Below, one piece after another: positions 1 through 55,426 of a stretch of DNA of 64,000 nt. The notes under the pieces were generated by a model that saw only the letters and a list, made by a program, of their open reading frames with translations, did no database searches and was not told the origin of the DNA. Source of the DNA: a virus (lineage: Duplodnaviria; Caudoviricetes); the IMG/VR virus record IMGVR_UViG_3300037467_001075, positions 1,820-65,819 of that record; one strand, given 5' to 3'. Positions within the stretch are counted from its first letter, which is position 1. Each line of letters opens with the position of its first letter. Position numbers and translations under genes: made by a program.

Positions 1-555
1 AACCATTTCATGAAGAACGACTCTGAGAAGAAATCCAAGCGGGCTTCAGTGATGGGCCCGTGTATTCAGTCAGTCACATTGACCCAGATCAAGGGCGGCA
101 AGAATGCCTCCTATGCAATCGACGTCTTCTATCGAACGACTGAACTGCTCAAGAAGTTTCCCGCGGATTTGATCTTCATCCGCGATGTGCTCCTCAAAGA
201 CTTCGACTTTTCCGGCATGGAATTTCTCGGGATGACTTGTCATTTCGCCAATGTTACAGTCCACCCGATGTATTTCGTCACGCTGATCCCACACCTGGAG
301 GATCCCGTTGCCGAGCTTGAGCGCATCAAGAAGAAGGATCGATATTTCTATGACTGGATCATCAAGTGGACTGCGCGTTATGTATGCGAGGAACACTATC
401 GAGGCATCCAGAAGTTCGCACAGGCGCTCCGCGTGAAGATGGATGCTGACAAACGCATCAAAGGTCGTCGCCGTCGTGAGCTAATCGACTACCTGCGCGC
501 CAATCACCCAGGTCATAACAATGACTATGTAGACCCCGATGGAGACGATGAATGA
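1..555 (+). CDS. Divergent thymidylate-synthase-fold protein (5' probably truncated by window edge)
   Basis: Frame is open to base 1; PC motif (GPCIQS) followed by FYRTTELLKKFPADL, which aligns to the TS RSxD-x7-N/D segment; stop overlaps next TS gene (ATGA). Confidence 0.6.
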   Translation, partial: NHFMKNDSEKKSKRASVMGPCIQSVTLTQIKGGKNASYAIDVFYRTTELLKKFPADLIFIRDVLLKDFDFSGMEFLGMTCHFANVTVHPMYFVTLIPHLEDPVAELERIKKKDRYFYDWIIKWTARYVCEEHYRGIQKFAQALRVKMDADKRIKGRRRRELIDYLRANHPGHNNDYVDPDGDDE

Positions 556-1403
556 GGCCTTATCAATTCCCCACGTTTGCGGCAGCTTGTGAACAGTTGT
601 CGCATCGCCTACGCTACAAGTCCAGCCTTGTGCATTCTGCGCGTTGGCAGGGAGCTGACATCGCTGCTCGACCCGAGATGGCTACGCACGAACTGACCCA
701 TACAGCTTTCTGTGTTCCGCTGCCCCATGAAGATCGGGATCTATACGCTGCCGACATTCGACCCAACATGCCATGGGCTGAGGATCACTTCCGCGAACGC
801 GTCTGTGGTCGACCGATCAATCCGGGTGTCGAGTGGCAGAACTGGCCGTTCAGTAAGTCAGCTGCATCGTTCCTCGACGCTCGAGGCAAGTTCAATCATA
901 ACTACATGGAGAGGTATTGGCCTAAGCTTGCCGGCAAGGTTGCTGAACCCACCCATACGGTTGAAGGCTTCGATCACTTCCTCGAGCGTGACAACATCAA
1001 CGTCCATGATCCGCACACCGGCATCATGTATGAGTACGGAGACCTAGGCGATGTCGTGGCGCTGCTTGCTAATGATCCATATACGCGACAGGCTTATCTT
1101 CCAGTGTGGTTTCCCGAAGACACTGGCGGCGGGTCGAAGCGCGCTCCTTGCACAATTGGCTACCACTTTCTCATGCGAGACGGAAGGCTCGACATCAACT
1201 ATCACATCCGCTCCTGTGACTTTGTCCGTCATTTCCGGGACGACCTCTACCTCACCGTCCGCCTAGTTCTGTGGATGCTCGAGGCTTGTCGTCTCTGCAA
1301 CAGCGACTGGAACGATGTCGTCCCGGGTTTGTTCGTTATGCAGATCGGATCACTTCATATCTTCCGCAATGACTACCACATGCTGTATGGAGCGCCTCGA
1401 TGA
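552..1403 (+). CDS. Thymidylate-synthase family protein, dCMP-hydroxymethylase-like
   Basis: TRQA, catalytic PC (APCTIGYHF), RSCDFVRHFRDD and GSLHIF motifs; Asp at the specificity position as in T4 gp42. Confidence 0.85.
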   Translation: MRPYQFPTFAAACEQLSHRLRYKSSLVHSARWQGADIAARPEMATHELTHTAFCVPLPHEDRDLYAADIRPNMPWAEDHFRERVCGRPINPGVEWQNWPFSKSAASFLDARGKFNHNYMERYWPKLAGKVAEPTHTVEGFDHFLERDNINVHDPHTGIMYEYGDLGDVVALLANDPYTRQAYLPVWFPEDTGGGSKRAPCTIGYHFLMRDGRLDINYHIRSCDFVRHFRDDLYLTVRLVLWMLEACRLCNSDWNDVVPGLFVMQIGSLHIFRNDYHMLYGAPR

Positions 1404-1603
1404 AGTTGAGCTGTCTGTATGACATCGGCAATCGCGTCTTGATCGACAGCGACAAGGATATGCCGGTCACGATCTGTCAGGTTAAGTTCTCGCTCGCCAC
1501 GGGTAACTGCCTGATGATCTGGTATCTGTGTTCCTGGATCCACAACGGCGATGCGAAGAATGACTGGATCGAGGAATGGCGCTTGTCCCCGTGGAAGGAA
1601 TAA
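1400..1603 (+). CDS. Hypothetical protein
   Basis: 67 aa ORF coupled to upstream gene by ATGA overlap. Confidence 0.6.
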   Translation: MKLSCLYDIGNRVLIDSDKDMPVTICQVKFSLATGNCLMIWYLCSWIHNGDAKNDWIEEWRLSPWKE

Positions 1604-1610
1604 CCAACAG

Positions 1611-2117
1611 ATGAGGTATAGTCGTGAAAATATGTTCATGGACATGGCTCGAGCAGCATCGAAGCGTTCTACGTGCAGTCGACTTAACGTTGGCAGTCTG
1701 GTGGTGTGTGCTAACAATCCAATTAGTGTTGGATATAACGGGGCCGCGTCCGGTCAGCCACACTGCCTCGGTAATGAGTGTCCTGGCATGGTCCCTGGCC
1801 ATTGCCCTGCTATCCATGCTGAGGCCAACGCGCTCCGTAAGGCTGGAGAGTTACTTCCGGCAGGTACTGACGTTGACCTCTATCTTACTCACAGTCCATG
1901 CTCTCCGTGCGCTCTACTTGTGGTCAATTCCGATCTATGGGTTCGTCGCATCTTCTTTGAAATCCCTTACCGATCAACTCAGCACTTAGGGATGTTCGAG
2001 GGTTCCTACACGAAGCCCCATGACCCGGGACGCACTGGACGAACGGAAGTTTACGAGGTCACGCCGGCAGGTTATATTGTCGAGTACTTTACCCGAAAGG
2101 TCGTAGAACTCCCGTGA
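1611..2117 (+). CDS. dCMP deaminase (Zn-dependent)
   Basis: RSTC, GYNG, HAEANA and SPCSPC motifs; start placed at ATG 1611. Confidence 0.9.
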   Translation: MRYSRENMFMDMARAASKRSTCSRLNVGSLVVCANNPISVGYNGAASGQPHCLGNECPGMVPGHCPAIHAEANALRKAGELLPAGTDVDLYLTHSPCSPCALLVVNSDLWVRRIFFEIPYRSTQHLGMFEGSYTKPHDPGRTGRTEVYEVTPAGYIVEYFTRKVVELP

Positions 2118-10340: not shown

Positions 10341-10368
10341 CTTAAGCTGGCTCGGCTTATGATCGAGC

Positions 10369-10692
10369 ATGGGTCTCATATCACCAATCCTTCGACAGGC
10401 GTCTGACGGACTGCTCATCTTTTGGTGTCCAGGCTGTGACGGAGCACACGGCGTTCCTGTGGGATCAGGTCAAGGTCATCGCTGGACCTACAACGGAAAT
10501 GCCTATGCGCCAACCTTTCGTCCGTCCATCGTAGTTACCTACAAAAGATGGAACGAAGCAGAGAAAGCTTATACTCTAGTAGTTGGAGTATGCCACAGCT
10601 TCGTTACCGACGGGAAGATCCAGTTCCTCAATGACTGCACTCATCGCCTCGCAGGTCAGACTGTACCAATCCCACCATGGGATGAGACTTGA
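10369..10692 (+). CDS. DUF6527-like Zn-binding protein
   Basis: FWCPGC..H, WTYNG...PTFRPSI, CHSFVTDG.IQFL.DCTH. Confidence 0.7.
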   Translation: MGLISPILRQASDGLLIFWCPGCDGAHGVPVGSGQGHRWTYNGNAYAPTFRPSIVVTYKRWNEAEKAYTLVVGVCHSFVTDGKIQFLNDCTHRLAGQTVPIPPWDET

Positions 10693-17020: not shown

Positions 17021-19692
17021 TACTTCGTTCCTACAATCGAGGCATAGATCGTGCCGACCATGCCATTCAAGTTAGCGGGTGCAACAAGTTGAGCACTTTG
17101 TCCACCCGGGATCGTTGTGTCAGCAGCCTTGATAAAGGTCGCGTTGACCGAGCCTGCAGCAAAGCGCATGGTTCCGATTGATGTTCCCGGCGGTGACTGA
17201 ATGTCGAAGTCAGTCTGAGCTGACGGCGCTGCAGACCCTGTGCCGCCAATGCTGCCTTGACAGTCAGCTGCACCCGCAGGTAGTTTCCAACTGATACCCG
17301 TCGGCGTATCGAAATAGGCAAACGGAGTCGAGACGGTGATGTTGGCGATGTCACGCTGGAAAGCGAACCCAAACTTCACAGTTGCGGCAGCAGCCGAAGT
17401 GATACTCACGCCGGTGCTTGCCGTTGCGTCACCAATCGTATTATTGGCTACGATGAAGTAGGTATAAGGCTGACCAGCTGCGGCGGTCGAGTCCGTATAG
17501 CTGTTGCCCGTCGTCGTTCCGATCTGCGTCGCAGAACCGAAGGATGCACCGAGACCGTTTGCACGGTAGACCTTGTAAAGCTTGATATTGTCTTGAGTAA
17601 CGTTCAGTGGCCAAGTGACAAGGTTATAGCCTGTCACCGCTGAAGCGCTCGGCGTTCCTGTCGCAGTCGGCACACCGCCAGGACCGGTACCGTAACCCAA
17701 GCCCGAAGGAGTATAGGTATAGGCCGTGCAGGTCGATAGGTCCTCTACAGCTCCACCAAAGATATTGTAACTCTGGAACTTGAAGTAGAGCGTCTTGTTG
17801 ATGTATTGAGGCGGCAAGACATACTTGAAGATCGCATTATCCAGTCGAGCAAAGCTGGAACCGATAGCATGAAGTGGCGCAGTCGTCCCATACAGCGCAC
17901 GGTAGAGTGCCGTCTGCAGCGTATAGTGTGAGGTCGAAGTGAAGAGTGCATCCTGATAGGAGATGAGCTCGCCGCCGATGTAGCTGAGAGTTGCATAGGT
18001 CGCAGCGTCACCCGCTGCAACGCTGATCAGCTCACCCAAGCTCATTGATAGATCGACACCGACAGTGTGCCCCGTGTCGGGATTGACGCCGGCATATGCA
18101 GCGAGTGCACTCGTCGTCTTACCCATGCGAGCCGGTTCGGTAATCTCACCAATCTCAGCGTAAGTTGCACCGTCCTGCGAAACCCAAACGAAGCATCCTC
18201 CCCAATTCGGGTTTGCTGTCGTTCCGTCACCGCCTGACACGGCAGCCCAAACCTCAGCATCCGAGGTGAGCAACGAAGTCGGCTCAATGAAGATCGGCGG
18301 ATTGACCGGGCCTGAAGCGACGCCCGTATCATTCCCTGTGGGAGTCTGATCGGGAACACCGAACCCGCTCGAGTCTGTGGATCCGACAAGAACCTGACTT
18401 GCTTCCATAGCGAAGTTGTTCTGATCGTCTTCCTCGATGCGATCCACTTGGACATCGATGATGCCGAGCACCGGATCGATAATAGTTAAGACGTCCATCG
18501 GCTCTACGAGTGAGAACGCCGGTCCCACAGTGAACTTGTAGGTGTTCCCGCCTCGATAGGCATTGCGCTGACCCATGAGAGCGACCATGCTTGTCGCCAT
18601 GGCCATGTCGCAAACTTCATGAGCATTGAAGACTGCATCCTGACGCGAGCCGAACTGATCGACCAATGCCTGATCGACCCATTCCACAGGGACTGCATTG
18701 TATTCCTTGGCTCGGTTCAGTATCTCCATCTGCAGACGGTTCTTGCGATCCGTCGGGTTGATGCGAGTAATGATGATGGGATCGACGCCTTCACCGTCTT
18801 CACCGCCGCCGCTGATATAGTCCGCATCGGTCAGCGTGTAGATCGGAGCACTGACCGTATTAGGCGGAATGTAGGTGACCCCATTGCCCGTGATCGTTTC
18901 GAGGGCGTAAGGAACGAACTTGAGCAAGGCACCGTTCCAGATAACCGCGGTGTTGCAGATCTTGCCCCACCTGTCTAGAACGTCGATTGCCTGCTCCTGC
19001 GTTGTCAGCGCTGGGGACAGGCCGAAGCCCATCGCCTGGCAATATGTCTGGAACGCGCTGTCGCCGGTCGTAGGCGCATCCGGTCCTGACAACAGGGAAG
19101 TCATATCGATCAACGTGCTGGGGAAGCCTGCGCCGCCGATAGGCAACGTCAGCAGGTCCTCGACGCATAGTGCCGGGTCAGCGTCACCGGCGCCGCCTAC
19201 TTGCGTATTGTAGCGCAGGCACTTTGTCTCGAATGAGTGCTGTGGCAAGGACGCCGAATTGCCCAGGTCATAATTGGCTTTGTCCACGTGGACCGTGCCA
19301 GGATAAGACAACGCAGCCTCGGGGTGATTGGCTACTAGATATGCCCATGGGGACTGAGGATCGGATCCGTCGAAGAACGTCAAGCCGAGTGACGCAAGGG
19401 TGGCATTCTTCTCATTGTCTCGGAAGACCTTGATAATCCCGGCTGACGGTCCCTGACAGATCGCCATCTGAAGTGATGCGGAATAGGTGTATTGAGCACC
19501 GCCCTTACCGCCGCCGCCTTTGCCGGCAGCCTTCTGCTTGTGCGCCTTGAAGTCACCATACCACATCAAGTTAGGTGCAAGACGGGTTAAGCCCCAGCAC
19601 AGCGGCAGGGGCAGATTGTTTGAGCTCGACTGAACCTGCAGCGAAGAATACTGCGGCTTGCTCTTCATTCGTGAACCAAAGAACAGACTCAC
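17020..19692 (-). CDS. Tail tip / host-specificity (gpJ or GTA megatron-like) protein with FN3-like domain
   Basis: 890 aa following NlpC/P60; LPL.WG..RL..NL.WY, GEL..Y, LYFKFQSYN. Confidence 0.85.
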   Translation of the reverse strand: MSLFFGSRMKSKPQYSSLQVQSSSNNLPLPLCWGLTRLAPNLMWYGDFKAHKQKAAGKGGGGKGGAQYTYSASLQMAICQGPSAGIIKVFRDNEKNATLASLGLTFFDGSDPQSPWAYLVANHPEAALSYPGTVHVDKANYDLGNSASLPQHSFETKCLRYNTQVGGAGDADPALCVEDLLTLPIGGAGFPSTLIDMTSLLSGPDAPTTGDSAFQTYCQAMGFGLSPALTTQEQAIDVLDRWGKICNTAVIWNGALLKFVPYALETITGNGVTYIPPNTVSAPIYTLTDADYISGGGEDGEGVDPIIITRINPTDRKNRLQMEILNRAKEYNAVPVEWVDQALVDQFGSRQDAVFNAHEVCDMAMATSMVALMGQRNAYRGGNTYKFTVGPAFSLVEPMDVLTIIDPVLGIIDVQVDRIEEDDQNNFAMEASQVLVGSTDSSGFGVPDQTPTGNDTGVASGPVNPPIFIEPTSLLTSDAEVWAAVSGGDGTTANPNWGGCFVWVSQDGATYAEIGEITEPARMGKTTSALAAYAGVNPDTGHTVGVDLSMSLGELISVAAGDAATYATLSYIGGELISYQDALFTSTSHYTLQTALYRALYGTTAPLHAIGSSFARLDNAIFKYVLPPQYINKTLYFKFQSYNIFGGAVEDLSTCTAYTYTPSGLGYGTGPGGVPTATGTPSASAVTGYNLVTWPLNVTQDNIKLYKVYRANGLGASFGSATQIGTTTGNSYTDSTAAAGQPYTYFIVANNTIGDATASTGVSITSAAAATVKFGFAFQRDIANITVSTPFAYFDTPTGISWKLPAGAADCQGSIGGTGSAAPSAQTDFDIQSPPGTSIGTMRFAAGSVNATFIKAADTTIPGGQSAQLVAPANLNGMVGTIYASIVGTK

Positions 19693-23278: not shown

Positions 23279-26200
23279 TACTTGCTTCCTCCAGATGCGC
23301 CGCCGACAAAGGCGCCGTCACGCTGTTGCTTCTTCAACCAACGCAGCAGACGACCACCGTCGCGTCGAAGCAGTTGGTCCATATTCATTTCACGAGGCGC
23401 CGATCCGTACTGTGGACCATAGTGAAGATGAGTGTCACCACCATTGTTAGTCGTGCGGGACGACGCGCCGGCCGCAGCTGCAGAACCAAAGATGCCACCC
23501 GATGATGGGCCTGAACGCATCTGCTGACGCAGCGGCTCAGCGGCCCAAGCTGGCAACACCATTTCCTTCTTGTGCAACATGGAGAGCTGGCCGTCGAACG
23601 GAACCTCAGCCTGACCGCCACGTGCTGACACCAACGCAGCGAACCCAAGCACTGCCGCGAGGGCGGCTGCAGCAGCGACAGGCGCAGCGACGGGACCGAT
23701 GAACGGGATAACGACGGTTGACGAGAACGCGCCGGCTGCCGACGTTGCAGCGCGAGTGCCGATTTCCGCGACAGCGCCTGCTGCACCCACAGTACCACGA
23801 GTGGCCTCACCCGTTACCTTCGCGCCAGTCTGCACCGCTTCGGATGTGACCGATGCTCCAGTCTTTGCTGCCTGCTGGGCTACGTGAATTCCAACGGCAG
23901 CAGCGCCAATTCCTTCACGACTTGCGGTGCCCGCTGCAGTGATACCCGTCCGTGCAGACTCTCCCGCAGCAACTGCTGCAGTCTCCTGTGCTTGCTGGAT
24001 GTGAACAAGCCCAAGTCGGACGGCTTGCTTCGTCAGCCAGTCGACAAGCACCTTCTCACCCATGTCCGCGAACTTGTAGACGATTTGATCGCCGAGATTG
24101 ATGAGGCCTTGCCAGACCGTCATCGACCGTGTCCATAGTCCTTGGAAGGTGTTGTTCAGCGACTGACCCACAGTCTGGAACATGCCTCGCCATGTGTCCA
24201 TCGAGAGCTGAGCAGTCTGAATGTTTAGCGCTTGAGTCTGTGTTGCAGCCTGAGCCTGGATGCCGCGCATCTTCGCTTGATGCTCAGCTTCCATCACCTC
24301 GAGCTGATTGAGCAACTGCCGGCGAGCATCAGCGGTCAGGTTGTCAAGTGCGAGTTGATCCTCGACCGCTTGCTTCTTCAGGCCATAGATCGTATCCTCG
24401 AAGCGCATCTGATCCGTCGTCTCTTCGGCGAGGATCCGCTTCTTCTCTTGAAGTGCCTTGTGGTCACTGACAAGACCGTTCGTTGCTGCGAAGTCGGCAA
24501 GCTGACTCTGCTGCTGAATGGCCTGGTTCTGAACCTCGTTCTCGGCGTTCGCTCCTTGCGTTGCGATGTCGAGCTTCTTCTGGATCGTTTCCTGTGCGAT
24601 CTTGACTTGTTCTTGCCCGATCCGGTACTCCAGGTCAAGTGTTTTCTTGTGCTCTTCCTGAGCCTGCTTCGACTGAGCGCCGTAGAATGCGGCGGTCTTG
24701 GCTTCAATCTCGTCCTGGATCTGCAGCTGAGCGTAGAGGTCGTCCTTATACAGCTCCTTCTTCGCCTCGAGTGTTTCGACCTCACCCTCAAGTGCCTCGC
24801 GTTGGCGCTTATGCTCAGCACTCTCGACTGCCTTGTCGTCGGCGATCAACTCATTGGCTAACTTCGATCCAGCCGGCTTACCGACAATGGACTGAGGAGC
24901 CTCGATGTGAACGTGATCCTTGTGTTGGTTCACATTCGGTGGAATATCGTAGGACGGTCCACCACCGAATGGCTGATAGACTTTCCCGTTCCACAGGATC
25001 CTGAAGCCGCGAGCCTGATAGGCAGCGACCATCTTGTCCATCTGTAGCTTCGCCGATGCGTTCGCGGCCTCAGTTCCTGCACCGGGAATGTTGACATCGA
25101 TAGCGAACTCGGCATGAGCTGTATTGCCCATACCCGGATGGTTACCGTGAATACCGCCAAATTGGTTGTTCTCGCCTACCGAGTAGCCTGCCTTCTGCAG
25201 TTCACGACCGGCGACACCAATCGCCTGAGTCCGACTGTGGAATGTCGCCTTTTCTTCCTCACGCGCAGCAGACGCTGCATCGCGGCGAGCTTGAGCCTCT
25301 TGCTCCTTGACACGGTTGTAGCGCTCATTCTCCTGACGGCGCAGCAGTGCAGCACGGTCGAAGTCGGCAAGCGTCTGCTGACTATTGCGATAGGCGTCGG
25401 TGATCGCTTGCAGTCGCTTCTGGTGTTCCTTCTCCGAAGGTTCCTCATCAGCGGTCTTCTTGAGCAATGCAGTCCGAGACTCGGTAAGTGCATCGGTCGA
25501 CGTCTTCAGCAGAACCTGCTCGCGACTAAGCTCACGCTGCGCCAGAACAAGACGACCATACTGAACGCCGAGCATAGCGAGCTGTGCAGCTTGAGGCGCA
25601 AGATTGTAGACCGTGTTCTTACCGGCCCGCATATCGTCATATTCTTGCTGAAGCTGATTTACCTTCGCCTGCGCCTGAGCAACTTGGGCAGTTGCCTGAG
25701 CCTGCGTCGTTGCGTTCAGGTTGTTGGTGTTCTCGAGGTTCTGCAGATCCTCGTTGTTCGACTGACGCTGCTGCTCGACATAATCCTCGAGTGCCTTGGT
25801 CAGGTCCTTGACCGTTGCAGTGCGACGAGACTCGGCATCGTTCAGATCGAGCGTCTTCTTCTTGCCGTCGTCAAGACTTTCCCACAGGTAGCCGAGGACC
25901 ATCGTGAACCCGATGATCGCCGCACCCCAGGGGCCTGCGAAGAAGGCAGCGACACGACCGACGGTACCGCCCATGGTCGACATCGCCGCAGCGGTCTGAC
26001 CTCCCTGCTGTGCAAGGATCACGAGCGGATTGATACCGGATGCCCAAGACGCGACCACGTCTTGCATCTGATAACCGATCTGGACGTTCAGGTTATTCAT
26101 CCGCCCCATCGTGCGGACGTTGACATCCATCTGTGCCTTGGCCTGCTTCAAGACCGCAGTGTATTCAGCCTGACTAAGCTTCTCCGCGTCGAGTAGCTTC

Positions 26201-39838: not shown

Positions 39839-40072
39839 ATGGCTAAAGAGAAACGGGATAAGCCGCCGCCTGGTGGCTGGATGGGGCCACCTCGAACAAC
39901 AGGCCTCAAAGGACTTCGTGAAGCAGTTGGATCAAAGAAAGGAAAATGGATATGGAAGGACATACCACAGAAGGCCAAGGATCGTCGACTTCGCAAGGAG
40001 TGGGAACGGCGGATGTCCAAAGCGGATGCGAAAGGGCATTGGCATTTCCCGTGGCCTCCGAAGGACGAGTAG
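39839..40072 (+). CDS. Basic hypothetical protein
   Basis: AGGAG RBS; 77 aa. Confidence 0.5.
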   Translation: MAKEKRDKPPPGGWMGPPRTTGLKGLREAVGSKKGKWIWKDIPQKAKDRRLRKEWERRMSKADAKGHWHFPWPPKDE

Positions 40073-40764
40073 TCCTAGATCATGGCTATGTGAAGTTGAG
40101 AAACCTCGCAGGTCCGACCCGGCGCCGAGACTTGGAGTTCGACGCAATTGACATCGATCCAGCTCAGGCTGCTCGAATGTCGTTCGATCAGATGGACAGT
40201 GATCGCACCTATGAGGACGATATGAAGCTTAACCGCTATCTCCTCAAGAACATGCACACCAGTCCCTTCGAAATGATTTCGGTATGGGTCGAAGTGAAGG
40301 TGCCGATCTTCGTTGACCGTCAGCTTGTCAGACATCGGACGTGGCGACGCAACGAGTCTTCCGGCCGTTACATCGTTTTGCCCGACGAGTGGTATATCCC
40401 ACAGGTTGTCGGCGGTAAGGCACCGAATGCCAAGCAAGGTCAAGCAGACACTCTTGACCAGATTACTCAATCGAAGTTCAAGACCGACTTGAACGATCAA
40501 TGCCGAGAAAGCTACGATCTTTACAAGTACTACATCGATGAAGGTGTGGCGCCAGAGCATGCTCGGATGTTTCTCCACCTCAACCACTACGTTCATTGGT
40601 TGGGCAATGTCGACTTGGGCAATATGTTCAAGTTTCTTGCCCTACGAGCTCACAGTCATGCACAGATAGAGGCTCAGGCTTATGCGTTTGCGATCATCGA
40701 TCTGCTGCGTCCTCGTCTGCCCGGTCTCATGAGCCTATTCGACGAGTTGGTGAAGCGTCCATGA
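39946..40764 (+). CDS. thyX: Flavin-dependent thymidylate synthase (probable start GTG 40051)
   Basis: LDHGYV, AARMSF, HTSPFE, PIFV.RQ..RHRTWRRNESSGRY, APE.AR, HAQ.E. Confidence 0.95.
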   Translation: MDMEGHTTEGQGSSTSQGVGTADVQSGCERALAFPVASEGRVVLDHGYVKLRNLAGPTRRRDLEFDAIDIDPAQAARMSFDQMDSDRTYEDDMKLNRYLLKNMHTSPFEMISVWVEVKVPIFVDRQLVRHRTWRRNESSGRYIVLPDEWYIPQVVGGKAPNAKQGQADTLDQITQSKFKTDLNDQCRESYDLYKYYIDEGVAPEHARMFLHLNHYVHWLGNVDLGNMFKFLALRAHSHAQIEAQAYAFAIIDLLRPRLPGLMSLFDELVKRP

Positions 40765-42159: not shown

Positions 42160-42546
42160 ATGTTTGCCTTTTCGGATAAAGATTGGCCGGGTATCGCCAA
42201 GATGGTTGAAGAATGCGGCGAGTTGCAGGAGGTCTTGCCACTCGTGATCCTCATGAAGTCCCTTGGGAAGATCACCCAGACGCAAGGAAAGCTCATGATG
42301 ATCCAAGGTGGCACCGATCATTGGTCCGGTGACCTCCGAAAGGCTATGATCGAGGAGATGGCTGATGTGATAGCCTCGATCCGCTTCGTCGGTGAGCATA
42401 ACCTGAGCAAGCGGGAGCGAAAGATGATCGCCACTCGCGTCGAAAAGAAGATGCAACGCTTCGAGAAGTGGCATAGAGGCGCACAGGTGCAACAGCGGAT
42501 AGCGAAAAATCAATCCAAGGCGAAAACGCGACGACGCAATGCATGA
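42160..42546 (+). CDS. MazG-like NTP pyrophosphohydrolase
   Basis: K.VEECGEL and EEMADV acidic helices; AGGAGG RBS. Confidence 0.7.
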   Translation: MFAFSDKDWPGIAKMVEECGELQEVLPLVILMKSLGKITQTQGKLMMIQGGTDHWSGDLRKAMIEEMADVIASIRFVGEHNLSKRERKMIATRVEKKMQRFEKWHRGAQVQQRIAKNQSKAKTRRRNA

Positions 42547-42656
42547 TGACGCGTCGATGACCTCGAAAACGCGCCTAAGGCGCCCAAAATCGACGTTTTG
42601 GATGCCTTAGAACGCGTGTTCAACGTGCATTGATCGATGACGACGCAATGACGGGT

Positions 42657-53328: not shown

Positions 53329-53459
53329 GGATCAACCAGTGACACGTAATTACATGACTCTCATTTTCCAAGCTATATAAGATGGGACCAGGTGCGTGGG
53401 ATACGTTCATGGCCCGGTTTTTTGGACGGGGCGGTCATGAACGCAGGCGGGTTAATTTA

Positions 53460-53570
53460 TTAAGGCAGGACGTTCGATAGCGTGGTCATGGTGTGATAGA
53501 AGTTCGACAGCAACGGGATCAGACAGTAGAACACGTAGAGCGGAACAGCGATTTGAACAATGCGGATCAT
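53460..53570 (-). CDS. Small hydrophobic peptide (36 aa, not in ORF track)
   Basis: AAAGGA RBS; MIRIVQIAVPLYVFYCLIPLLSNFYHTMTTLSNVLP; own TTAA-type promoter at 53599-53630. Confidence 0.6.
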   Translation of the reverse strand: MIRIVQIAVPLYVFYCLIPLLSNFYHTMTTLSNVLP

Positions 53571-53638
53571 GGTCAGTTCCTTTCGTTTCGATGTTCACAG
53601 TATACATGCAACAGGTTAAGGAAGTGTTACGGGTTGAA

Positions 53639-53758
53639 GAAAAAAGATGCGCGTCAGTGAAGGTCACATTACGGAACACGACGGATGCACAGGGCATTTC
53701 ATGTAACGCGCATCAGAGGCAGGTTGTGTCGCGCACAACGGACAGTCATGCGCGACAC
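53639..53758 (-). ncRNA. Structured 3' UTR / candidate sRNA ending in terminator
   Basis: 14-bp hairpin plus 11-bp stem enclosing about 47 nt, then T7. Confidence 0.45.
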
Positions 53759-53767
53759 GTAACGGCA

Positions 53768-54058
53768 TTAGGCGTCGGTCGTTTCGACGTTCGCCTTTTT
53801 CGTCGACTTGCGCGAACGCGCAGGACGAGCGATTTTGGCGGCGTAGGTAGTATCGAACGCGGCGCGGATTGCATCATATTCGCGTTGATTGTTCGCAACC
53901 CATGAAGTGTTGCGAATGTGCGATGCAACCTTCGAACGCAAACGCGAACGGATTTGTTTGTCGTTCAACGTGAACGACTTGTTATCCTTGTGCGCGTCGT
54001 TGATGATCGACTTGAGCACAATCGGGAACGTCGTTGATTTACGTGCAGGCATGTTCAT
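53768..54058 (-). CDS. Basic early protein, divergent member of the HTH paralogue family
   Basis: LNDKQIRSRLR...W; AAAGGA RBS; promoter with leader hairpin. Confidence 0.7.
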   Translation of the reverse strand: MNMPARKSTTFPIVLKSIINDAHKDNKSFTLNDKQIRSRLRSKVASHIRNTSWVANNQREYDAIRAAFDTTYAAKIARPARSRKSTKKANVETTDA

Positions 54059-54069
54059 TTCCTTTCATC

Positions 54070-54120
54070 GTCGCGTCATTGCGACAATCACAATATGCGC
54101 GCAATCTATTAACAAATCAA
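54070..54120 (-). promoter_or_regulatory. Sigma70 promoter with leader hairpin (copy 2)
   Basis: TTGATT-17-CATATT-6-GTCGC AATGAC GCGAC. Confidence 0.75.
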
Positions 54121-54160
54121 TAAGCCATTTCTTTTTTCTCTGTCTCGTATTGGGACGGAA

Positions 54161-54615
54161 TATGGTTAAGGATTTCGGCGGTTCGGCTTAACCATAAAGT
54201 CGTCAGCGGGTGGGCCAGCCACGTCTGGACTATCTGTTCTGGACGTTCCGCTGCGCTCTGGCTGGACCAACCATGGTTTGGCTAATCTTGCGGTTGGGCC
54301 AACCAAGCCTTACCCGGGCTATACAGTTGAAGGTGTAGGTGCAGATAGATCCATATGGCCAGCACGCAGATTATTGCCCACAGCGCACCCGTCCTTATGG
54401 ACATATAGTCTGGTTGGGCCAACTGACACGTAATAAGTTGTCAGCATTGCGAGCACCTGTCTACTTCTGCATCAAGTCTTGCTGTAGAGAAGTTGGTCAG
54501 AGTACTGGCTGGTCCATACCCGTCCTATACAGTTGCAGGCTATACAGCTCTACCTAGTCTATCACGTAATTACGTGGCTCATATTGGCCCGTCTCTCGGC
54601 TGGTCCAGCTGGTCT
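54161..54615. repeat. Non-coding island of short palindromic repeats (candidate origin or packaging/terminus region)
   Basis: Six TGGNCCA, three CTATACAG, palindrome CACGTAATTACGTG, inverted repeat TATGGTTAAG/CTTAACCATA. Confidence 0.7.
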
Positions 54616-54735
54616 TTTCTCCCCTAAAATCACGATCCTGATCTGCATAGATCCAATCCTGTTACGGGTTTGCCCATGCGCGAACAGTCCAGTTGTTGTA
54701 GTTTTTGTAGGTTTTTACTCAAGATTTGTTCCGTA

Positions 54736-54764
54736 TTGACACTAAGGCGCTCTTCCTGTAAAAT
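54736..54764 (+). promoter_or_regulatory. Sigma70 promoter
   Basis: TTGACA-17-TAAAAT. Confidence 0.75.
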
Positions 54765-54868
54765 GCCATACGGAAATACCAATCTGGTCCTATTTCGGCA
54801 CTACTCTTGAGTGAAAAACCGCGAAATCGACAATCTGGTGTGTATATAGCGCTAGGAAAAACTACAAG

Positions 54869-55426
54869 ATGGAAAAATCTACAAGACGAAATGTCAAAGT
54901 GAAAATCCGGAAGCCAAAACTGGATGTAGACGAGTTCAATGCTCTGACGGATGTTCTATTCGAGCTCTTCAAAGAGAATGGCTCAAAGTGCGCCTACATG
55001 CTGGACATTTCTCGATCTACCTGGACAAAATGGACGACGAACCCTCCCCGGCAATGGTGGTGGAACTTGGTGCTCCGAGACGTCATCAAGTCTGCGATCA
55101 CAGGTCTTCACGGACGCAGAGGCTTCACAGCACGACACAGGCGCAAGGTGATGGAAGCGCTACAGCGAGTTCCACAGAGCGAAGAGTTTCTCGGCGTGAT
55201 AGAGGCCGAAACTTACAGTGTCGATGGCGCAGCTAATTTCTTACGCTTAACCCTCGGGCGGAAGGGAATGTTCTGGGACGAGCTCCGGAAGCCTGCAAAC
55301 TGCGGCGGCTATACGGAACGCGCGCTCCGAAAGGCAGCACGGATGATTGGGGTAGTCAAGACGCAGGAAGGTTTCGGCGACAACAAGCGCAGCTATTGGC
55401 GGCTGTCGAACGAGGACGACGACTGA
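54869..55426 (+). CDS. DNA-binding protein: N-terminal HTH plus C-terminal winged helix related to the primase-helicase C-terminus
   Basis: CAYMLDISRSTW; AANFL...L...RALRKAA...GV.K...G...W.L. Confidence 0.7.
   Translation: MEKSTRRNVKVKIRKPKLDVDEFNALTDVLFELFKENGSKCAYMLDISRSTWTKWTTNPPRQWWWNLVLRDVIKSAITGLHGRRGFTARHRRKVMEALQRVPQSEEFLGVIEAETYSVDGAANFLRLTLGRKGMFWDELRKPANCGGYTERALRKAARMIGVVKTQEGFGDNKRSYWRLSNEDDD

Follow-up and report, generated by a model that had tools for sequence, protein, structure and literature searches.

Which force keeps CC, GG, CT and AG dinucleotides out of one small early cassette of a phage whose remaining DNA contains them at a normal rate? The question is raised by a 64,000-nt stretch of DNA (positions 1,820 to 65,819 of the IMG/VR record IMGVR_UViG_3300037467_001075, Caudoviricetes), called the window below, where the depleted cassette lies around a leftward-reading open reading frame (ORF) of 96 amino acids (aa). 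The source genome belongs to a 65.8-kb siphovirus-like phage of soil or root metagenomes, and its large terminase is ~61% identical to those of the Brevundimonas phages Strzyga and Polewnik. The original prediction had taken the scarcity of these steps for a possible footprint of context-specific base hypermodification. Throughout the text, any CC, GG, CT or AG dinucleotide is termed a D-step, which equals 5′-CY-3′ on either strand (5′-RG-3′ on the opposite one).

The counts that had first drawn attention to the locus (about 18 D-steps against about 70 in an equally long neighbouring segment) were reproduced exactly, with 18 D-steps in 53881-54120 of the window and 70 in 54181-54420. Over all sections of 240 nt the mean was 60.1 D-steps with a standard deviation of 7.1, and the minimum of 17, found at 53867-54106, lay ~6 standard deviations under this mean. 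A maximal-scoring-segment scan of the whole 65,819-nt genome, for which 40 first-order Markov simulations served as the null (top score 12.5), returned 53723-54123 as the single outlier, where 37 D-steps were counted in 401 nt instead of the ~100 expected (score 31.4). All four dinucleotides were low on the plus strand (CC 6, GG 14, CT 8, AG 9). Relative to the rate of the window, AG/CT reached 0.34 and CC/GG 0.39, while AA/TT (1.60) and CG (1.59) were raised and GA/TC (0.88) stayed near normal, thus the depletion is not a matter of purine-pyrimidine alternation, just as the original prediction had held. The second patch that had been suggested at 42520-42653 contained 12 D-steps in 134 nt, and its score of 10.9 fell inside the null range, so it is not significant alone.

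Comparison with codon usage, which had been proposed as a check of the depletion, gave a significant result. The 96-aa ORF contained 31 D-steps, whereas synonymous resampling with the codon usage of the genome gave 57.6 ± 4.7, and none of the 20,000 resampled sequences was as low as the real one. When the gene's own synonymous codons were shuffled, the number of D-steps was 38.8 ± 2.1 (fraction as low as observed, 0.0001), which is still higher than the observed value and indicates that D-steps are avoided at the codon junctions as well. Consequently, neither codon usage nor the protein sequence explains the depletion of the patch, the cleanest parts of which in the window are still the promoter and the first two thirds of the 96-aa gene.

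Homologous DNA was available from 16 loci and four further whole contigs in addition to the window, and after the removal of duplicates (L001 is the window's phage and L012 is the same as L003) 19 distinct sequences were compared. For each of them, the coding minimum of D-steps was computed by dynamic programming, and an index was defined as the excess of observed D-steps over this minimum, expressed as a fraction of the excess that random synonymous choice gives on average. The sequences formed a series of states. Eight of the 19 (L003, L004, L005, L006, L009, L010, L011, and L016) were extreme, with 4-16 D-steps in the ORF (minimum 1-9, synonymous mean 45-58) and an index of 0.02-0.15; the depleted stretch of this group was 496-658 nt long and held 8-28 D-steps instead of the expected ~125-175. 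G007 and G011, with patches of 756 and 752 nt, were intermediate (22 and 26 D-steps in the ORF, index 0.30 and 0.36), and the window together with L002, L007, and L008 represented a partial state (25-40 D-steps, index 0.36-0.52). Depletion was confined to the promoter region in G008, where just the 155 nt upstream of the gene were affected and the ORF had 68 D-steps (index 0.80). G006, L013, L014, and L015 showed no depletion (51 and 70-72 D-steps, index 0.89-1.20) and retained the architecture of the cassette. In each genome having a patch, the patch was the top segment (score 116 in G001, 114 in G002, 121 in G003, 90 in G004, 67 in G007, and 76 in G011), and D-steps occurred at the normal rate of 0.24-0.27 in the remaining phage DNA. 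Ten genomes possess the thymidylate synthase (TS)-like module discussed below and lack the 96-aa gene; nine of these had no segment with a score of at least 14, and the remaining one, G010, had a single 151-nt segment with a score of 15. No segment above score 16 was found within 10 kb of the TS-like gene in 80 loci carrying such a gene.

The extreme relatives provided evidence that the depletion is maintained. Six pairs of extreme patches differed by 4-37% of their nucleotides, five of them by 28-37% (136-194 substitutions), and the patches still contained 8-17 D-steps (8-16 in the five divergent pairs). Random substitutions at the level of the five divergent pairs led to 80-99 D-steps, with a minimum of 54 in 2000 simulations. 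Such low numbers of D-steps across 28-37% divergence mean that the state is kept by selection and not by history, and we concluded that purifying selection keeps the extreme patches free of D-steps. In the pooled patches (3,928 nt) the rho values were 0.11 for AG, 0.10 for CC, 0.13 for GG, and 0.05 for CT, compared with 2.79 for CG, and no further trinucleotide was avoided in this pool beyond the D-steps themselves; the avoidance is thus a pure, strand-symmetric dinucleotide pattern. The remaining D-steps sat at the ribosome-binding site (RBS), in Pro codons (CCN, also as Phe-Pro TTCC), in the Trp codon TGG, and in the Lys codon AAG, which are places where a D-step is either unavoidable or required. 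The codons forced by the avoidance (AAA, GAA, CAA, TTR, CGH, and NCR) are contrary to the genome's own usage, and since codon optimality is sacrificed in this way, selection acts on the nucleic acid.

The protein itself is also adapted to the dinucleotide constraint. Gly (GGN) is missing from the 96-aa protein, as had been pointed out originally, the core of the whole family lacks Gly as well, and in two lineages, L006 and L016, the Trp (TGG) of the other members has given way to His. The 96-aa ORF is a real gene, given that 103 homologous protein clusters with 46-96% identity were found and 23 residues were invariant in their alignment, and no other gene of the early block, which changes fast, is common to the related genomes compared. 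The family has no assigned function: the protein had no match in Pfam, PHROGs, or the protein atlas, its sequence profile reached at best E 0.53 against PDB, Foldseek gave no hit at E <= 0.001, and the best Z value in a wide structural search was 4.6. Its AlphaFold2 model is small and helical, with a mean predicted local distance difference test (pLDDT) value of 71.6. No homologue of the protein was detected by tblastn in 50,697 phage records, and megablast of the window segment 53000-56000 against phage records gave no match.

In a maximum-likelihood tree of 17 family members, the clade of the window (index 0.36-0.52) was nested in a group whose other members were all extreme (0.02-0.15), with modest support and a midpoint root. 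In the four sequences of this clade, 49 of the 98 D-step positions were private to one sequence and 13 were shared by all four; private positions are the pattern expected of independent gains after relaxation. The patch of the window therefore looks like a half-decayed relic of a step-free state, as judged from the tree and the distribution of its D-steps.

The limits of the patch fit a transcription unit, as it starts 5′ of the predicted −35 box, ends just past a hairpin, and has conserved D-rich motifs on both sides (Table 1). Its upstream limit lies 2-3 nt before the predicted −35 box in the window, and, as estimated by eye, ~50 nt or more before it in L003 and L004. The same promoter layout was seen upstream of the homologous gene in the relatives, which keep the leader hairpin at the equivalent place with different stem sequences and a similar loop. 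Based on the spacing from the RBS, the real start of the 96-aa ORF is probably the second ATG at 54052. The 3′ hairpin, which is replaced by a hairpin of other sequence at the same place in the relatives, may be a terminator or an RNA-stabilising element. The cassette is the first unit of a leftward early gene block. A small ORF at the position of the 36-aa ORF is found inside the depleted patch in some extreme relatives; in L003 it encodes 24 aa and lies at 10358-10435 within the step-free patch. The conserved D-rich element, which can also be written as TGACCGCCCGTCC ... CACCTGGTCC.ATATCTATATTTCTAGG ... CACGTAATTACGTG, is located 3′ of the patch in L003, L004, L005, L006, L009, L011, and L016; it does not resemble early promoters of the sigma-70 type and may belong to a different class of promoters or operators.

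Table 1. Features of the cassette, its surroundings and genes of nucleotide metabolism in the window (a D-step is any CC, GG, CT or AG dinucleotide)
Feature	Position	Strand	Remarks
Depleted patch	53723..54123	both	37 D-steps in 401 nt, score 31.4
Predicted sigma-70-like promoter	54092..54120	-	−35 TTGATT 54115-54120, 17-nt spacer, −10 CATATT 54092-54097; consensus reading
Leader hairpin	54067..54088	-	~8-bp stem, loop AAUGAC, directly 5′ of RBS AAGGAA; RNA fold
96-aa ORF	53768..54058	-	basic, no Gly, conserved family
3′ hairpin	53726..53758	-	14-bp stem, closes the patch, no U-tract after it; RNA fold
Second early promoter and leader ACATCGAAACG	53460..53640	-	pattern match at 53584-53594
36-aa hydrophobic ORF	~53460-53570	-	downstream of the 96-aa gene
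Conserved D-rich non-coding element	53340..53440	-	TGACCGCCCCGTCC ... CACCTGGTCCC ... CATGTAATTACGTG; between the cassette and the next gene
Repeat-rich non-coding region	54140..54440		GGTTAA repeats and GGTTGGGCCAAC-type palindromes, D-rich; the patch ends sharply at its edge
Early-promoter/leader sites	43829, 56617, 57701, 59001, 60518	-	also in the early regions of G001 and G002
277-aa TS-fold gene, 3′ part	1..555 (genome 1541-2374)	+	model pLDDT 86.7
ThyA-like enzyme (283 aa)	552..1403	+	catalytic Cys and RSxD kept; Asp instead of L. casei TS Asn229 (E. coli Asn177)
dCMP deaminase	1551..2117	+	PHROG 174, E 1e-32
ThyX, flavin-dependent thymidylate synthase	39946..40764	+	PF02511, E 6.7e-37

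On the other side of the patch, ~700 bp of non-coding DNA (54140-54860) separate the cassette from a divergent early unit and contain GGTTAA-type tandem repeats together with GGTTGGGCCAAC-type palindromes. Repeats conserved in kind were present in the upstream regions of L005 and L006 and at 19220-19290 of Strzyga (L037), and the region could serve in replication initiation, partition, or regulation. A divergently oriented gene of 185 aa lies at 54869-55426 (plus strand), and its product has an acidic DDD tail and gave no family match; it is conserved in G001, G003, G004, G006, G008, G011, and Strzyga. In Strzyga, a 325-nt stretch with 31 D-steps, that is, a moderate depletion, lies directly upstream of this gene.

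All members of the group carry a module with genes for a deoxynucleoside monophosphate (dNMP)-kinase-like protein, a MazG-like protein, a 277-aa protein, a ThyA-like enzyme, a deoxycytidylate (dCMP) deaminase, and DNA polymerase I; the first two lie upstream of the 277-aa gene outside the window, and the two TS-fold genes, of 277 and 283 aa, are adjacent (1-1403 of the window, 74-2374 of the genome; L036). The same module occurs in Brevundimonas phage Strzyga and Pseudomonas phage PMBT14, and relatives of the ThyA-like enzyme are encoded in 322 IMG/VR stretches. The model of the 277-aa protein has a TS-like fold, and its best Foldseek match was 9iqu, the dCMP hydroxylase of phage HY126 (E 2.5e-5, TM-score 0.48/0.59). 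The residue at position 177 of E. coli ThyA (229 of L. casei TS), Asn or Asp, sets the specificity for deoxyuridylate (dUMP) or dCMP, as described in the accessible part of PMC13326640. The ThyA-like enzyme has a PC...RSCD...D layout that aligns with L. casei TS, its best sequence matches in PDB were the N229D mutants 1njc and 1njd, and Asp stood at the specificity position in all five family members aligned (FRDDL and variants), so the Asn typical of dUMP-specific TS was absent from this enzyme and its four aligned relatives. In the ViI-type enzyme of Salmonella phage 38, Asn was one residue away from this position in the alignment. On these residues, the ThyA-like enzyme is probably cytosine-directed, and together with the predicted folds they make a pre-replicative C5 modification of a pyrimidine, probably cytosine, likely.

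One extreme genome, G001, also contains a gene for a 5-hydroxymethyldeoxyuridine (5-hmdU) DNA kinase (PF18723, E 8e-79) at 24599-25492 (L022:4599-5492), 3 kb from the patch. This kinase is the entry step of post-replicative hypermodification, a process that acts in sequence-specific contexts according to the part of PMC8989533 available. Given the Asp in the ThyA-like enzyme of G001, formation of its 5-hmdUMP via deamination of 5-hydroxymethyl-dCMP is one possibility.

The frequency of palindromes in the genomes points in a similar direction. In G000-G005, where G000 is the genome of the window, 6-mer palindromes with D-steps occurred at 0.88-1.01 of expectation and those without D-steps at 0.58-0.65, and among the six dinucleotide classes only AG/CT (0.91) and CC/GG (0.96) were exempt from palindrome avoidance. 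In the unrelated control phage CRP-6 both palindrome classes were avoided (0.45 and 0.39). Such an asymmetry is what a modification protecting D-containing sites would look like; in phage CAjan, preQ0 at GA and GGC was shown experimentally to protect the sites containing them (PMC7544227, accessible part).

From these data we tentatively propose that a covalent DNA modification or lesion specific for 5′-CY/RG steps, either the phage's own or made by the host, is avoided in the unit that is read first. The patch would represent one early transcription unit, in which a small conserved gene and its promoter are combined with hairpins on the 5′ and 3′ sides and which is held step-free by purifying selection, and each D-step would be the target of a covalent DNA change that depends on the dinucleotide context. 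Either the phage would attach a bulky group to its own C5-modified pyrimidines, or a defence enzyme of the host would produce a lesion. If left unaided, the host RNA polymerase would be hindered by marked steps when it binds or reads the template, and a unit that is needed first, or is under attack, would be written without D-steps for this reason; in the lineage of the window the constraint would have relaxed, leaving a half-decayed patch. The promoter, its timing, the modification with its context, and the effect on transcription are what we infer in this scheme. The self-inflicted variant may be somewhat likelier than the host-inflicted one. A lesion of the same context inflicted by the host would nevertheless agree with the data just as well, and a host enzyme marking RG/CY steps fits the strand symmetry, the single (counter-defence) unit, the variation between lineages, and the absence of a correlated phage gene. 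DarT1 was considered as a model of a guanine-directed lesion at RG steps and dropped; it gives no support, as the accessible part of PMC11543638 reports no consensus motif. A more detailed version of the proposal, which we consider less likely, is that the unaided host polymerase reads an immediate-early clean strip of 500-660 bp, step-free to the point that its protein has lost Gly and Trp, and that the product then makes the marked genome usable, the marked base being the pyrimidine after C.

Several observations weigh against a covalent mark as the cause. For CC and CT to fall under one context, there must be a rule for a 3′ pyrimidine next to a modified C or else a 'pyrimidine after C' rule, and to our knowledge neither exists in any enzyme. 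None of the 16 genes tabulated across the genomes, including ThyX variants, DUF1643, DUF6011, and the 5-hmdU DNA kinase, tracked the state of the patch. The module was present whatever this state was, including G006 (index 0.89) and G008 (0.80), two complete genomes that have the gene without depletion of its ORF, and the 10 genomes without gene or patch. The link to the TS pair (ThyA-like enzyme and ThyX) that the original prediction had drawn is not specific and not supported in that form. The kinase occurs in one of the two complete extreme genomes (G001, not G002), and it was not found in G000 and G002-G005; a tblastn search of the remaining genomes and the short loci did not detect it either. 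In G000, G001, G002, G007, and G011, neither DpdA/TGT (PF01702; 14 of 14 controls positive) nor a C5-methyltransferase (PF00145; 9 of 14 controls positive) was found; Tet/JBP (PF12851) had no match in the five genomes either, but none of the 14 control genomes was positive in that search. Pfam and PHROG scans of the ORFs, many of which had no match at all, gave no hit to a glycosyltransferase family.

The palindrome asymmetry is not tied to the patch, either, but characterises the group as a whole. It was seen in G006 without a patch (0.60/0.89), G007 has a patch and gave 0.81/0.86, and the 80 loci with a TS-like gene were heterogeneous in this respect. Strzyga avoids the D-containing palindromes GGATCC (0 vs 15 expected) and AGATCT (1 vs 10 expected). 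TGATCA and CGATCG were strongly avoided in G000-G005 and Strzyga (in G000, 5 vs 34 expected and 5 vs 48 expected, respectively), while the non-palindromic CGATCA/TGATCG was over-represented, and ACATGT had no occurrence in three genomes. The TGATCA/CGATCG signal is ordinary restriction-site avoidance, separate from the signal of the patch, and suggests that the hosts have restriction activities of the BclI-like and PvuI-like kinds. Since CGATCA/TGATCG was not depleted, exposure of GATC solely in YGATCR contexts was dropped as an idea.

The other early promoters also speak against a general rule. They belong to a family with GTTGAT/GTTGAC, a spacing of ~17 nt, and a TATAAT-like box, followed by a leader hairpin GCAAnnACGCG and a GGAG RBS. 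Promoters of the same design besides that of the cassette carried D-steps in the 55 nt upstream, 5-9 in G001 (n=8) and G002 (n=6) and 8-13 in G000 (n=4), and the genes driven by them in G001 and G002 had ordinary composition; these promoters, too, are expected to be used by the host polymerase. The earlier suggestion that DNA read first by host RNA polymerase is kept step-free is therefore not general, and if marked steps block the polymerase, an assumption has to be added, namely, that these other units must wait for the product of the cassette. It had also been stated that all seven leader hairpins lack D-steps. Five copies of the GCAAnnACGC[GA] hairpin were recovered, and their cores were indeed step-free, but not all seven could be confirmed: the sites 42645, 47830, and 56190 did not fold into the motif hairpin and had 6-10 D-steps in the 50-nt core tested. 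The five copies represent a single short motif; four of them lie outside the cassette, and 8-13 D-steps are present in the 55 nt preceding these. The conserved loop of the leader hairpin suggests a protein-binding or RNA-stabilising role. As a whole, the modification reading of the original prediction is partly supported, by a selected, DNA-level, strand-symmetric step-free unit and a probable C5 module, and its rule that C is not followed by a pyrimidine on either strand describes the pattern most simply; the mark itself is deduced, and none of the 16 genes tabulated tracks the patch.

Among the alternatives to a DNA mark, a constraint on the RNA survives best, and we consider it unlikely. 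According to this explanation, the transcript must lack steps resembling the Shine-Dalgarno sequence or its complement, or the targets of a dinucleotide-specific host enzyme that modifies or cuts RNA, and thereby stays translatable while other mRNAs are affected. A single logic could cover all four dinucleotides, as AG and GG form the core of the Shine-Dalgarno sequence and CC and CU its complement, and the leftover D-steps do cluster at the real RBS. However, avoidance was roughly equal for the four dinucleotides and concerned each of them by itself instead of Shine-Dalgarno-like words, a trinucleotide signal was not seen, and the replacement of Trp together with the total ban on Gly exceeds what the avoidance of internal Shine-Dalgarno sequences needs. 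A defence enzyme acting on one dinucleotide in single-stranded RNA does exist in the form of CmdT (bioRxiv 10.1101/2024.02.24.581662, in the part accessible). The extension of the patch ~50 nt or more upstream of the predicted −35 box in L003 and L004 speaks against a transcript-based constraint, except that this upstream part may hold further promoters, as judged by eye, and so may be transcribed. RNA structure was rejected as the driver, since the folding energy was ordinary, with z = -2.3 for the window and +0.8 for L003.

Protection of the leading end is improbable. Here, the DNA entering first would lack the sites of a low-specificity nuclease and encode its inhibitor, and the rest of the genome would enter later, in the way that T5 delays entry after first-step transfer and T7 couples entry to transcription. 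This would explain why one unit alone is protected and why lineages vary, namely, through their host range, and a repeat-rich non-coding region does adjoin the cassette. The position of the cassette fits poorly, though: the terminase genes are ~16 kb away, and in a lambda-like layout the first-entering end would be near 38.3 kb of the window, not at 54 kb. The distance of the gene from an end is 11 kb in one and 19 kb in the other of two IMG/VR records that have direct terminal repeats, so these records do not agree. In addition, nicking enzymes with sites of 2-3 bases are known to us only from chlorella viruses.

Immunity to a DNA binder has an equally low probability. The 96-aa protein, or another protein of the phage or the host, would silence DNA at D-steps, and the step-free cassette would stay expressed. 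The small, basic, helical, and highly conserved 96-aa protein would suit such a role, but no DNA-binding fold or family was detected in it, and its sequence is kept where the gene has ordinary composition (L013-L015 and G006). Conserved D-rich motifs flank the cassette, and its promoter lacks the AG/GG that precedes the −35 box of the other early promoters, both in favour of a binder; nevertheless, a protein that reads single dinucleotides would cover DNA everywhere, and outside the patch the phage genome has D-steps at the normal rate of 0.24-0.27.

Local mutation bias without selection, for example by a context-specific deaminase on a heavily transcribed or single-stranded region, is highly improbable. 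The G+C content of the patch is indeed lower than that of the genomes (0.41-0.49 vs 0.49-0.56), and AA/TT is raised, but the change of Trp to His needs up to three substitutions and is not a product of deamination, CG is enriched 2.8-fold and not lost, the sharp edges coincide with functional elements, and the composition is normal in homologues that occupy the same position in related genomes. The deaminases known to us are guided by the 5′ neighbour, so that CC and CT would not both be lost. An origin from foreign DNA of odd composition or by chance fluctuation has a negligible probability and can be dismissed in the case of the extreme relatives: hardly any orthologues are shared in the surrounding early region by the genomes compared, indicating quick gene turnover, but the 96-aa gene is the only early gene common to the group, the score of 31.4 far exceeds the null maximum of 12.5, and the depletion persists at the coding minimum through 28-37% divergence.

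Returning to a covalent mark at CY/RG steps, the closest known systems are those of context-specific hypermodification, where a bulky base mark is set in very short contexts; preQ0 of CAjan covers two motifs, GA and GGC (PMC7544227, accessible part). M6, ViI, PhiW-14, and SP10 have 5-hmdU-derived bases, and according to the available part of PMC8989533 5-hmdU is converted in sequence-specific contexts; the kinase of G001 is the counterpart here. In clusters of C5-methyltransferase, TET, and glycosyltransferase genes, the phage C5-methyltransferases prefer GpC, as stated in the accessible part of bioRxiv 10.1101/2023.12.21.572611. Unlike in these systems, the modification considered here is a predicted one, and no DpdA or C5-methyltransferase was found in the five genomes scanned. 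In the accessible parts of the hypermodification papers, there is no mention of a region of the genome from which the modified context is absent.

The gene set is also similar to that of T4-type cytosine replacement, which employs dCMP hydroxymethylase, dCTPase, dNMP kinase, and dCMP deaminase, followed by glucosylation. In T-even phages, glucosylation depends on the neighbouring base. Unlike T4, the phages examined here have two adjacent TS-fold proteins, and no glycosyltransferase was recognised among their scanned ORFs. Asp179 of the T4 dCMP hydroxymethylase is matched by the Asp of the ThyA-like enzyme (PDB 6l18, entitled 'T4dCH D179N'). The 5-hydroxy-dCMP synthase of the RB69/DLP3 type has Asn in place of Asp169 of E. 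coli ThyA (PMC13326640, accessible part), whereas the ThyA-like enzyme keeps Asp in its RSCD motif and does not show this D169N signature.

Another set of parallels is offered by DNA that enters the host first. Avoidance of restriction sites or anti-restriction functions on such DNA are found in T7 (gene 0.3), the pre-early region of T5, and the leading regions of plasmids. As in these cases, the sequence of an early unit seems shaped to survive or function before counter-defence, but unlike in classical restriction avoidance, two reverse-complement dinucleotide classes are affected instead of sites of 4-8 bp; 4-mer palindromes (TCGA, GCGC, CGCG, GATC and others) abound in the patch. Animal RNA viruses avoid CpG and UpA over their whole genome. 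CmdT, which targets GA in single-stranded RNA, resembles the case described here in recognition at the dinucleotide level, where escape is possible by writing without the dinucleotide. The CmdTAC authors judge escape by mutating the sites of a whole genome implausible in the accessible part of bioRxiv 10.1101/2024.02.24.581662; here, by contrast, the purge is local, strand-symmetric, and concerns other dinucleotides. No description of a local, near-total, strand-symmetric purge of two dinucleotide classes in one cassette was found in full-text literature searches (supplements outside their scope). Avoidance of short words to escape sequence-reading enzymes is a known principle in viruses; a local near-total purge that stays at the coding minimum over more than 30% divergence and costs the protein amino acids differs from it.

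The window holds the decayed copy of a feature that is much more striking in its relatives, and the series from extreme to absent depletion provides natural controls. Since the cultured relative Strzyga carries the same nucleotide module, the question is testable. The results mean that something in these phage-host pairs acts on DNA or nucleic acid at single CY/RG steps and that one small protein must be made despite this action. Should the cause be a host enzyme, the 96-aa family would be a candidate counter-defence protein; should it be a modification, clean strips could serve as a sequence-only signal of the hypermodification context. If the proposed explanation is true, no gene would previously have been known to evade a DNA mark by recoding of its dinucleotides, and the context of unknown phage DNA modifications or defence enzymes would be readable directly from genome sequence.

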